64,000 bases of DNA, taken from Nitrosopumilus sp. (GTDB taxonomy: Archaea > Thermoproteota > Nitrososphaeria > Nitrososphaerales > Nitrosopumilaceae). Both the position numbers and the translations under genes were made by a program. Below, piece after piece: positions 10,381 through 62,868 of this stretch. Under the pieces are notes generated by a model. The model did not search any database, had not been told where the DNA came from, and saw only the letters and a program-made list of their open reading frames with translations. Where the stretch lies: the NCBI GenBank assembly GCA_965204345.1, contig OZ241981.1, positions 320,001-384,000 of the forward strand, read 5' to 3'. Positions within the stretch are counted from its first letter, which is position 1. Each line of letters starts with the position of its first letter.

Positions 10381-10710
10381 CTATTTTTTAGATCTTGATT
10401 TGTTATTTGAATAGATTTTATACAAAATTATAATCAAGATGCCAGAATTTATCAAAAACAGTATCAAGATAACAAAAGTATTAGGGATACATTGGGGATG
10501 GTATGGTATGAATGCACCAAGTCCAAAGATTGCAACATCTTGAACTACTAAATGTCCAAAGAGTGTTGATGCTGCAGCAACAATAATAACACCAACATAG
10601 CCAAAAATTAAACCCAATATGCGCTCACACTATACATTCCCTTTCTCGCAGCAACAATAATAACACCAACATAGCCAAAAATTAATCTAAAAAAAGGGGT
10701 TAGGATGCAT
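10381..10710 (-). pseudogene. Small membrane protein gene disrupted by a 36-bp insertion with 38-bp duplication and a T7 slip
   Basis: MHPNPFF(RL)IFGYVGVIIVAA can be restored from the ATG at 10710 by removing one T and the insert plus one repeat copy; two TM segments. Confidence 0.6.
10574..10685. repeat. Exact 38-bp direct repeat flanking a unique 36-bp insert
   Basis: GCAGCAACAATAATAACACCAACATAGCCAAAAATTAA at 10574-10611 and 10648-10685. Confidence 0.95.
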
Positions 10711-10711
10711 A

Positions 10712-11464
10712 TTACCATGCACCGTATACGAAATCTACATCGACATCATACCAAGTTGTGCCACCCTGAATGTTGCTGAATGCATGAAAACCTCTTGCAT
10801 CATCTACTCCATTCAGATAATAATGATTCGTACCATATTGAACATCACCATGTATGAATTCATGTGGTACAAAACACCAGTAGCTATAGTACCAGTTGGC
10901 ATGCCAATTTACATCAATAACACTTGGAGTTACAGTTGCAGAAAATACAGCATAATTACTTCCAAAACAAGCTGAGTATCTATCGTACAGACTTAGATTA
11001 TTTGGAGTGCCTATCTCTCTATCATGCAAATCAATACGAGCACCATTAATGTCTGAATGACCTGAACCATCACCAACAGCTCCTGTAGAAACATCTGTGA
11101 ATGTTTCATGGATACCAAGGTTGTGGTTAATCAAAGTGTATGTATCATTATCATTGACAAGTATTCTGAAATTCTCTGCACTTTGTTTTTCTCCGTCTAT
11201 CTTGGTTACTGTCTTCACATGGTATTTTTGATCTGAAATCTGACGAGTTTTTGTGACAACAGATACAGTTTCACCATCAAAAGTCTTTTCTTGGATGTTC
11301 TTACCTGGTTGAGATATGAGATTTTCTATATATTCTACTACAACAGGATCGTAGATTGTTGTTTGTTCTTCAGCTGATGCATCGTTAATACTTAATGGCA
11401 ATATAATTGCAGCAATCAGGGATGTAAACAGAATTGTTTTTGTTTTATTTGTTATGTTTTTCAT
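10712..11464 (-). CDS. Secreted hypothetical protein
   Basis: Signal peptide KTKTILFTSLIAAIILPLS of a type common in Nitrosopumilaceae accessory proteins; beta-rich C-terminus with a Cys pair. Confidence 0.75.
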   Translation of the reverse strand: MKNITNKTKTILFTSLIAAIILPLSINDASAEEQTTIYDPVVVEYIENLISQPGKNIQEKTFDGETVSVVTKTRQISDQKYHVKTVTKIDGEKQSAENFRILVNDNDTYTLINHNLGIHETFTDVSTGAVGDGSGHSDINGARIDLHDREIGTPNNLSLYDRYSACFGSNYAVFSATVTPSVIDVNWHANWYYSYWCFVPHEFIHGDVQYGTNHYYLNGVDDARGFHAFSNIQGGTTWYDVDVDFVYGAW

Positions 11465-11851
11465 GTTATTACTAACCCCTATGTGCTTTCGTTATTTAAG
11501 CAGTTTTATTGAGTTACGGCATGCTTCTTTTTCAGCCAATTTACGGTGCATGCCAAATTTTTTTATTCTCCATAAACATTATTTCTGCAGTTTCAAACCC
11601 TTCAGGAAATTCCTAATGTTGGCAATCAGTAGCGTCAGTGCAAAGAATGTAATGATAAATTTGAGCCATAGTAAGAAAATGTTGTCTAAACAGGCCAAAA
11701 AAACGTCGAAGATAAATTAGATAATTTAAGAAAAACATCTCTTCGCAATACATCGGCAGACAAAGATGGAATTGACATCAAGGATGATAATCATTTTGAC
11801 AATTCAAAACGCAAAATTACAAATATATAAAAAAATAAATCAAAAATTGGG

Positions 11852-12013
11852 CTATCCTTCAGATATGCTTTTAGAACCACACACTTTGCATTTGCCGTCA
11901 AGTTTGGATGTCTTTGTGTTTACTGTGATCTTGTGGCTTGAAAACACATGACCACAGCCATACTTATCCTTTGATTTCACTAATTTGATTGTTGAAATCT
12001 TACTTTCTTCCAT
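11852..12013 (-). CDS. Small putative Zn-binding protein (53 aa; not in ORF track)
   Basis: MEESKISTIKLVKSKDKYGCGHVFSSHKITVNTKTSKLDGKCKVCGSKSISEG*; CGH...H...CxxC. Confidence 0.45.
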   Translation of the reverse strand: MEESKISTIKLVKSKDKYGCGHVFSSHKITVNTKTSKLDGKCKVCGSKSISEG

Positions 12014-12453
12014 CTATTAATTCATGATTTTAATCTACAATAAGTGCCTTTTTGAGTTAGCTCACGAAGGTGTTACAGAAACCTCTAACTAACACACCAA
12101 CCCTTGAATGTAAAAGTCAACGTATCTAAATTATGCTAGATTCCATGTCCCGAATTGAACACTAGGGGCAAATGTACACTGTTCAATCTTAGAGACTTTT
12201 CAACAGGGTGTTAAATTAGGGTCTTTTTGTGTTAAGTTAGGTGCTTTTCGTATTGAAAAAATAAATGGGATTTTTAATTACTGTTTTTGCAAATCTTGTA
12301 ATCTTCTTCAAGTAAATCCTCCAACATACCAATTAGTTAAGGCGGATTCCCCACAACGACTAGGATTCCACTATAAGAAATTCTATGGTTTCCTTTAGTC
12401 TTTTGACTATTTCTTGATTGGATACTTTGATGCCTGTCTTTAGGAAACTAGCT

Positions 12454-61516: not shown

Positions 61517-61599
61517 AACTAGATTAGCATTCAGGGACATATTTAATTTGAATCCAGACACAAAAGATTCCCAGGCAAGGAAACCATGTGATCGCCACT

Positions 61600-61950
61600 A
61601 CAAGCCGGTGACACATGAGAAAATGCAACTATGATAGATCACGATAAAACCACTTTGTGCATCAGTAATGCTAAAAGAAAAAAAGAGAGATCAGTCTTCT
61701 AGTAGTAATGATAAAAGCCGTCAGGAATTGTTTCAAAAAGGGATATTGCAAGTAAGATTGCTGCAAAAGATCTCAAATCATCGCAAATGCAGTTAGAAGA
61801 AATCGTGCCATGGAGATTCAAACAGATATTGTGATATACAAAATTGGCTTTGCAGCTCAAAAACAAAAAAATGCCAAATCACAGCATCAGGTGACTAGTC
61901 GTACTTGAAGCATGAAACCTGTGATCCAAACCAGATTCAGGATCTAAAAC
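61600..61950 (+). pseudogene. CBS-domain protein pseudogene
   Basis: Fragments in shifting frames: TIDHDKTT-like, ISLLVV, SGIVS, RDIASKIAAKDLKSSQMQLEEI, KMPNHSIR*LVV. Confidence 0.5.
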
Positions 61951-61990
61951 AGTAGCATCAGACGGTTAGTCATACCTGAAGCAAGTTGCA

Positions 61991-62461
61991 ATGTCAAGTA
62001 ATGGGGAGGTTTTCCCAGAGATTATCCTAGCAAAACGGACAGGCAGGTATAGACTGCCAATGGACTTTGTAATAATATCAGCAGTTTTAACGTCAGTTAT
62101 TTTTGCATCATATCCAAGCATGTTAGGAATATGAGGAGGATAAGTTTTGGGCAAACAGCTTGCAGTATGCACTTACAAGCATTGTCTTTTTTGGGTATTG
62201 GGTTGTTTTGGAATACAAACGGGCAAAACAATCAGAAAGAAAATGTTGAACCTAAAGGCTGTGGATATCTCAGGGAAGAGTCCAACACTAAGGGCGGTTT
62301 TAATCAGCACGTTTGGAAAGTCATTTTTGCTCCCCATAGATGTCATTTTGGACCGGGTTCTTACTAGTGAAAAGAAGTAAATGGCATTTAGCAAGCTAGG
62401 GGACACAGTTGTCATAAAAATCATAAAGCAGAAATCGGATTTAAAATGCACAAAAGACTGA
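61991..62461 (+). pseudogene. RDD family membrane protein pseudogene
   Basis: MSSNGEVFPEIILAKR...DFVII...**...GKTIRKKMLNLK...GKSFLLPIDVIL...EKK*..SKLGDTVVIK with three internal stops. Confidence 0.7.
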
Positions 62462-62763
62462 TCCTGTCAGGTTTTCTCAGCGGGTTGTTGTGAAGATTTT
62501 TCCAACAGAGCTACTAGTGATAGGGATATGCAGGATGGCATCTGAGAACAGCAAACAAGGGTGTTGGCAGTTGGGTTTGCCAGATGAGCTTCAAAAAGAC
62601 ATAGAATTTGTAGGATAGTTTGAAAAACCACAACACTCAAAAAAAAAATAAAGAGGTCATAAAGACGGTGTTACAATAAAAATTGGAACACGGCCTAATG
62701 TGCATAAGAGATAGTGTATCACTTGAAAAACAGATTCCCTTTGAGAATGTTCCTGTTATGACT

Positions 62764-62868
62764 GTCATTTGGGATTTGTGTCGTTGGTGCGTTCTCAGAG
62801 GGAACTGTGATTGTTTCAAGAAAAGGAATTGAAGTCATTTGGGATTTGTGTCGTTGGTGCGTTCTCAG
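62764..62868. repeat. Exact 35-bp direct repeat flanking a unique 35-bp insert
   Basis: GTCATTTGGGATTTGTGTCGTTGGTGCGTTCTCAG at 62764-62798 and 62834-62868. Confidence 0.95.

Follow-up and report, generated by a model that had tools for sequence, protein, structure and literature searches.

Repeat-insert-repeat scars dispersed in a Nitrosopumilus genome, very probably left by off-target CRISPR spacer integration

What kind of event leaves a short, unique insert between two exact copies of its own target, at separate chromosomal positions and with nearly the same dimensions each time? The question is raised by a 64,000-nucleotide stretch (hereafter the window; G000:C1:320001-384000) of the genome of a sponge-dwelling Nitrosopumilus (G000; 2.12 Mb, 9 contigs, 38.7% G+C), in which three sites carry repeat-insert-repeat units of 38/36/38, 35/35/35 and 35/35/35 nt. 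A preliminary description of the window had taken them for single spacers integrated at non-CRISPR sites by Cas1-Cas2, with one repeat length of target duplicated, and our analysis supports that view. The three sites belong to a genome-wide set of 31 scars which, judged from sequence, are very probably the products of natural off-target spacer integration by the native type I-B Cas1-Cas2(-Cas4), in a system whose effector genes appear to have been lost. The three units were confirmed at the positions and lengths first described:

10574-10611: site 1, first target copy, 38 nt, exact direct repeat (100%); its minus strand encodes a portion of a transmembrane stretch in a small open reading frame (ORF)
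10612-10647: site 1, insert, 36 nt; a copied spacer whose source is an NFACT-family gene on the chromosome
10648-10685: site 1, second target copy, 38 nt, exact direct repeat (100%)
48743-48777: site 2, first target copy, 35 nt; 23 nt upstream of the start of the minus-strand ORF 48274-48720
48778-48812: site 2, insert, 35 nt; source not found
48813-48847: site 2, second target copy, 35 nt; contigs of runs X1, X2 and X3 pass directly from 48742 to 48813
62764-62798: site 3, first target copy, 35 nt; non-coding DNA, covered by no ORF of at least 80 amino acids (aa)
62799-62833: site 3, insert, 35 nt; source not found
62834-62868: site 3, second target copy, 35 nt; contigs of runs X1, X2 and X3 pass directly from 62763 to 62834

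At site 1 the 74-nt insertion is out of frame and divides an ORF of about 96 aa, encoding a small membrane protein, into pieces of 36 aa and 78 aa. A tolerant genome-wide scan found no scar in the window beyond these three.

Number, polarity and genic setting of the scars

Three sites in 64 kb had been taken to imply many more across the genome, with lengths that should be peaked, and both expectations were borne out. The tolerant scan of the whole 2.12-Mb genome (28-nt windows, at least 26 matches, periods of 30-159) gave 533 hits, 68 of them isolated. Isolated pairs number 26 in the 70-74 period bin, against 3 at 65-69, 5 at 75-79 and 0-7 in each remaining 5-nt bin. Exact pairs of at least 22 nt without another repeat nearby are peaked in the same way, 30 of 84 having a start-to-start distance of 70-79, with 5 at 60-69 and 3 at 80-89. 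The excess at periods of 70-74 is far beyond chance. We count 31 unique scars in 37 copies, a total reached from 35 pairs at periods of 62-76 by removing 6 copies in repeated DNA (29) and adding 2 adjacent sites hidden by the isolation filter. Start-to-start periods peak at 70-72 nt and are distributed as 62 (1 site), 66 (1), 69 (2), 70 (6), 71 (5), 72 (11), 74 (1), 75 (3) and 76 (1). Eighteen scars are clean, with exact repeats of at least 33 nt (33-42 nt, mostly 35-38) around inserts of 30-37 nt; the remainder have repeats with one to three mismatches or shorter exact cores. At no site has a scar grown past one spacer. Five scars occur in two to three copies inside multi-copy DNA. Blocks of multi-copy genes more than 99% identical, including 3.6-kb tandem units and a DUF6541 gene, occupy C1:1397000-1441000 and C1:2008000-2029000, and there a scar is present in some copies and absent from others.

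Single-copy empty sites had been expected in related genomes and give the polarity of the change as insertion. We compared the contigs of four sequencing runs (X1, X2, X3 and X10) with window positions 48000-63500, a region that covers sites 2 and 3. In X1, X2 and X3, which are sponge-metagenome runs from three different studies, both sites are skipped by exactly 70 nt each, with 35 nt fitting either side. The strains concerned are about 99.5% identical to the window, 28 mismatched positions having been counted over 6517 nt (about 0.4%). In these runs the bin that contains site 2 loses exactly 70/517 of its depth, so the site 2 insert is absent from them and not merely collapsed. These two scars are therefore missing from near-identical strains, and the earlier suggestion that all the scars are fixed does not hold. 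Run X10 contains all sampled words and is possibly the source sample; its contigs stop after 30 nt of the first repeat and resume 5 nt inside the second, as a 35-nt repeat breaks a k=31 graph. For the junctions, for which confirmation from raw reads had been proposed, the evidence is at the level of contigs: independent contigs show the empty sites, and those of X10 break where they should.

Nine other scars have empty counterparts. Contigs C2, C3, C5, C7 and C9 of the assembly are haplotigs of regions of C1, 90-99% identical to them, and represent related strains assembled together; C7 holds a single target copy of the scar at C1:1947301, and C9 a single copy of that at C1:499881. Six further inserts are absent from paralogues at 88-99.8% identity, and one, in cas1, is absent from homologues, which with sites 2 and 3 brings the count to 11 of the 31 unique scars. 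For site 1, a DNA search of the region in 30 relatives met species too diverged for an empty site to be read.

The distribution of the scars relative to genes, with targets scored after removal of the scar, is far from even. Targets lie in open frames of at least 150 aa in 11/31 cases, vs 78.7% of genome positions (P = 2.6e-7), and some scars adjoin promoters or gene ends. The period is divisible by three in all nine scars within frames of at least 200 aa, vs 8/22 of the others (P = 0.0013). Two of the nine stand at the extreme 5' end of their frame; the scar at C1:1974844 occupies the 5' edge of its frame, which is about 1,020 aa long, and its gene is not counted as broken. Genes among the nine that are still open include those for an S8 peptidase, an SNF2-type helicase, a D12 methyltransferase and a DUF6541 protein, each with 23-25 extra residues. 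Selection has filtered the scar set, most hits inside genes having been removed.

The CRISPR-Cas locus, target ends and insert sources

Whether the genome has a cas1 gene and a CRISPR array had been posed as a check, and both are present, together with cas2 and cas4. A single match to Cas1 was found in the genome (PF01867, 230 bits; C1:1887727-1888668, minus strand). Genes for cas2 (TIGR01573) and cas4 (TIGR00372), both matched over the full length and above cut-off, adjoin it, as does an array of six repeats at C1:1886280-1886667 with periods of 72, 68, 70, 72 and 72. In the transcribed sense the repeat has the 3' end GATTGAAAC, and 34 nt of it are conserved. Two Nitrosopumilus genomes whose Cas1 is about 60% identical have arrays of 36-nt repeats with a modal period of 71: in one, G302, the order cas7-cas5-cas3-cas6-cas1-cas2-cas4 is followed by 67 such repeats, and the second has 43 repeats. 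The target duplications (33-42 nt) match the repeat length of the native array (34 nt) and of these homologous systems (36 nt), and the periods of 24/31 scars lie at 69-72, vs 68-72 in the native array.

Genes for the effector complex were sought in G000 by profile and by homology. Profiles PF01905, PF09704, PF01881 and PF03787 (Cas7/DevR, Cas5, Cas6_C and RAMP) gave no hit in the genome, and cas3_core (TIGR01587) matched only ordinary helicases, below cut-off. Tblastn with the G302 Cas proteins recovered only cas1, cas2, cas4 and a C-terminal cas6 fragment, so that neither approach found cas7, cas5, cas8, cas3 or RAMP genes. The cas6 fragment (C1:1884292-1884660) is 63% identical to residues 92-214 of the relative's Cas6, lies on the strand opposite cas1-cas2-cas4 and is followed, within C1:1884292-1884791, by a single CRISPR repeat in degenerate form (6 of 34 positions mismatched); the stretch appears to be what is left of a second locus or of a rearranged one. 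Because G302 has the complete gene order while G000 keeps the adaptation module, we assign the G000 system, on gene content, to a decayed type I-B locus that has lost its effector genes and retained adaptation only. A tyrosine-recombinase-like ORF lies about 2 kb from the native array.

The cas1 gene itself carries a scar. Two TAA stops interrupt it, and its halves match profile positions 3-145 and 167-282. Read through and aligned with homologues, the protein shows one 24-residue insertion in which VIKIKPYQKHYA is duplicated around LQ-stop-DLI-stop-SSSII; this is the 38/34/38 scar at C1:1888134, which brings in both stop codons.

Are the targets related to the native integration site? We examined 20 clean sites, setting the orientation of each from the 4 flanking nt and the first 8 nt of the target only. 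The 5' score was 5.65 vs 3.82 +/- 0.29 for random sites, and the last 8 target nt, which had no part in the orientation, agreed with ATTGAAAC at 3.35 positions vs 2.23 +/- 0.28; in both cases 0 of 3000 random sets reached the observed value. In a separate test of target ends and flank against the native junctions, 0 of 2000 random sets did so. Among the 20 sites, 'ct' precedes the target, as in the native leader, in 10, the target starts with CT in 8 and ends with AC in 6. As scored here, the target ends and flank resemble the native leader-repeat junction and repeat end, and the interiors do not. One scar ends at GGATTCGAAC, duplicating the last 23 nt of a tRNA-Ser gene and leaving the gene whole. 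A de novo motif obtained by orientation expectation maximization (10.4 vs a null of 7.0 +/- 0.5 bits) is not relied on, since the data were given 20 restarts and the null 5.

Distant chromosomal sequence is the source of four of the 31 inserts; the matches, of 30/30 to 34/36 nt, have the same borders as the inserts. That of site 1 equals C1:1275229-1275264 at 34/36 nt, ending exactly at the insert borders, and the source ORF has NFACT_N and NFACT-R_1 domain hits. The insert at C1:1385316 equals trpA at 33/34 nt, that at C1:500959 an intergenic stretch, also conserved in G302, at 30/32 nt, and that at C1:1947343 (scar C1:1947301) a UPF0182 gene at 30/30 nt. The newest spacer of the native array is likewise self-derived (an unbroken match of 37 nt that takes in 4 nt of the repeat) and was integrated 7-13 nt out of register, so that 27 nt of repeat and 13 nt of the neighbouring spacer were duplicated. 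No insert derives from adjacent sequence, as template switching would predict. The inserts had also been proposed as a record of invaders; every one with a known source copies ordinary chromosomal sequence, and that proposal is not sustained. For sites 2 and 3 no match to the insert was found in the genome itself, in phages (blastn, E up to 1), in IMG/VR (exact 21- and 22-mers) or in 250 genomes of the family (at most 3 mismatches), a search that did not extend to plasmids or JGI metagenome contigs.

The four self-derived scar inserts differ from their sources at 5 of 132 nt, vs 0 of 153 nt in the flanking repeats (P = 0.02). With the native-array spacer included, three of five source matches have one or two mismatches while the flanking repeats are identical. 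Because of these mismatches, and because related strains are co-assembled as haplotigs, we infer that some donor DNA may have come from a related strain, at which the data no more than hint.

Relatives served as controls. G302, a whole 1.70-Mb Nitrosopumilus chromosome with a complete type I-B locus, has seven scars of period 69-73 in the same scan (L056:4314, L057:2256, L073:5567, L098:8146, L113:6336, L131:11912 and L134:5657). One of their targets is identical at 16/17 positions to the end of G302's own repeat, and two of their inserts are 100% identical to distant G302 regions. Seven scars in a genome with a complete system suggest that fidelity is generally low in this Cas1-Cas2 family. 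In G010, a relative without a Cas1 hit, the scan covered the first 792 kb of 1.36 Mb and yielded a single ambiguous candidate, beside an apparent tRNA end.

Other repeats and variable regions accompany the scars. Tandem coding repeats, in frame and unconnected with the scars, lie at window positions 27073-27267, 35691-35834, 41699-42006 and 63220-63369, where their periods are 39, 24, 15-39 and 30 nt, respectively. Window positions 11392-11700 are taken up by an element of about 310 bp with 8 more copies on contig C1 at 88-95% identity, one of them about 1 kb from the scar at C1:193699. Elsewhere, coding repeats of 309-312 nt form very long arrays (C1:14768-23767, 384957-399779, 440811-452095 and others), probably for giant surface proteins. 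Between 50126 and 55676 of the window, a 5.5-kb low-GC stretch (31-34%) varies between strains: contigs of X1 and X3, and a minor one of X10, join its two ends with 206 other letters between.

A proposed mechanism and its rivals

In the mechanism that we propose, the integrase, bearing a prespacer of about 33-37 bp, attacks the chromosome twice, at staggered positions separated by about 36 bp, the native repeat length. The attacked chromosomal sites would have ends loosely like the leader-repeat junction (..gct/CTG..) and the repeat end (..AAC/), the slash marking the border. Repair of the gaps would then duplicate the 35-38 bp between the attacks and leave a repeat-spacer-repeat unit with a period of 70-72 bp. 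The inserted spacers, many of them perhaps from the chromosomal DNA of the same or a co-resident strain, would cause no autoimmunity, because the duplicated 'repeats' are local sequence and not CRISPR repeats and because no effector genes are detectable; they could persist as neutral or mildly harmful insertions, with selection removing most hits within genes. Loss of the effectors may have favoured a burst of such events, and the hit that broke cas1 presumably ended it. The sequences themselves show the geometry, the tie to cas1 and the array, the polarity of insertion, the self-derived inserts, the resemblance of the target ends to the native junctions and the selection filter; catalysis by Cas1-Cas2, this order of events and the part played by effector loss are what they suggest.

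Several observations weigh against this account. With cas1 broken, the activity cannot be current in the G000 lineage. In eleven of the 31 scars the repeats contain mismatches or the exact core is shorter, and a few of these may have another origin. Compared along its full length, the target resembles the CRISPR repeat no better than chance (14.9 matches of 34 vs 15.1 for random sequence), no interior k-mer is enriched (best P = 3.5e-4 among 682 6-mers, none surviving multiple testing), and the two end tests give some sites different orientations. At the scar C1:1947301 the source matches a further 4 + 5 nt into the repeats, an identity between source and target ends that a plain integrase model does not predict. 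No source in the own genome was identified for 27/31 inserts, and no common protospacer-adjacent motif could be read by eye in the flanks of five protospacers, where the orientation of the scars is uncertain. The preliminary description had pointed to a mid-repeat motif, CAC.AACAT.GC. Its alignment is correct on the sequences (A6 A7 A18 C19 A22 A24 T25 C28 common to the three sites, and 10/12 matches at positions 17-28 between sites 1 and 2); because whole-target likeness is random and no interior k-mer is enriched, we regard the motif as particular to these three sites and reject it as a general signal.

Could the units be artefacts of the assembler or of library preparation, absent from cells? 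The assembly is of metagenome type with co-assembled haplotigs, and the only run with 100% of the words, X10, may be the source sample and so not independent. Artefacts would not, though, avoid long reading frames or be in frame in all nine long-frame cases, nor would they copy distant genes with one or two mismatches, travel in two to three copies within multi-copy DNA, or recur with the same geometry in the separately assembled G302; the X10 contigs, moreover, end and restart exactly where the repeat breaks the graph. We consider this explanation exceedingly improbable. The units also have the form of working single-spacer mini-CRISPR arrays, and the position of some beside promoters or gene ends could suit retention for immunity or gene regulation. 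A 'repeat' that differs at every site and is unlike the cognate CRISPR repeat, the survival of only a C-terminal cas6 fragment among the effector genes sought, the limit of one spacer per site and the absence of sites 2 and 3 from near-identical strains make such a role very improbable.

A different enzyme (casposase-like, or another integrase or transposase), or repair of a staggered break with captured filler DNA, would account for a target that overall is unlike the CRISPR repeat and for the one case with microhomology at both ends, and the recombinase-like ORF near the array offers a candidate. To our knowledge, tyrosine recombinases neither duplicate 36 bp nor insert 35-bp fragments. Casposon duplications are about 14-15 bp, and those of insertion sequences are shorter still; an insertion-sequence or transposon footprint was rejected on the duplications of 35-38 nt, the inserts of 30-37 nt and the uniqueness of each insert sequence. 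The target ends, as scored, resemble the native leader-repeat junction and repeat end, and the sole Cas1 hit belongs to a cas1-cas2-cas4 module. We favour integration by the native Cas1-Cas2(-Cas4) because the duplication and insert lengths equal those of the native array and of the relatives' arrays, and we regard another enzyme or a repair event as very unlikely. Four outcomes had been named in advance as damaging to the Cas1-Cas2 reading: a lack of cas1 or array, a broad distribution of lengths, inserts derived from adjacent sequence and reads that fail to span the junctions. None of them, where run or approached, refuted it.

What would the scars mean? As a natural data set, G000 is dense enough for analysis, with 31 events dated by polymorphism and one integrase. 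Its scars indicate that the enzyme reads the target at two junctions separated by about 36 bp and ignores the interior; they also show what it captures when interference does not purge self-spacers, and the cost to the host in gene disruption, cas1 included. One possible route of CRISPR decay is traced here, in which effector genes are lost, integration becomes purely mutagenic and the integrase gene is eventually hit. More tentatively, and with somewhat less belief than doubt, we suggest that this type I-B Cas1-Cas2(-Cas4) family may integrate off target time and again in Nitrosopumilus-like archaea, in a recurrent process of mutation that captures largely chromosomal DNA, some of it from co-resident sister strains. 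If so, it would add in-frame insertions of 22-25 residues to proteins and disrupt genes, including that of the integrase, and the scars would form an immunity-neutral record of what the adaptation machinery has captured, a log of strain-to-strain DNA exchange inside the sponge host.

Comparison with known systems

Casposons, transposons with a solo Cas1, are known in Nitrosopumilus. They share with the G000 scars a Cas1-family integrase, staggered cuts and target duplications; none of their other traits (multi-kb length, a polymerase B gene, inverted repeats, duplications of about 14-15 bp) applies to the scars. A parallel for the origin of the inserts is found in Haloferax, where chromosomal spacers are acquired from related species during archaeal mating. 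There the spacers copy housekeeping genes of close relatives, and in G000 three of five source matches carry one or two mismatches in an assembly that contains related strains; unlike the Haloferax case, G000 offers no evidence of mating, and the donor could be the organism's own chromosome.

For isolated or orphan CRISPR arrays, off-target spacer acquisition has been proposed as one origin, as mentioned in passages of PMC13142298 that cite 'CRISPR arrays away from cas genes'. For the G000 scars we propose that same origin. On that account such arrays have recognisable CRISPR repeats and often several spacers, whereas in G000 every scar consists of one spacer and a local 'repeat' peculiar to it. 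For Streptococcus thermophilus, PMC7999890 and PMC5338259 deal with ectopic acquisition of spacers within arrays. It resembles the G000 case in that integration takes place away from the leader-proximal repeat; those events stay within the array at true repeats, and their nearest equivalent in G000 is the out-of-register newest unit of the native array.

The closest counterpart is off-target spacer integration in Escherichia coli, which gives rise to 'neo-CRISPR' loci (Nivala, Shipman and Church 2018, Nature Microbiology; cited here from passages of the preprint, bioRxiv 10.1101/148544). In both, Cas1-Cas2 places a spacer at a non-CRISPR chromosomal site, duplicates a repeat length of target and leaves a repeat-spacer-repeat unit, an activity that for G000 we infer from the scars. 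According to the preprint, in the passages cited, the acquisition machinery had to be up-regulated artificially in the E. coli case, and the natural evidence was circumstantial and came from two other species. G000, by contrast, is the natural genome of an archaeon: its module is of type I-B, it has 31 unique sites, some of them with polymorphic empty counterparts, selection has visibly filtered the set, and one hit lies in cas1. A limited literature search found no published report of such scars in Thaumarchaeota or sponge symbionts. The mechanism is thus already known from the E. coli experiments; what is new is the density of events in a natural genome, the hit in cas1 and the recurrence in a second genome, with seven scars. 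The selection filter visible in the scar set also makes the case stand out.

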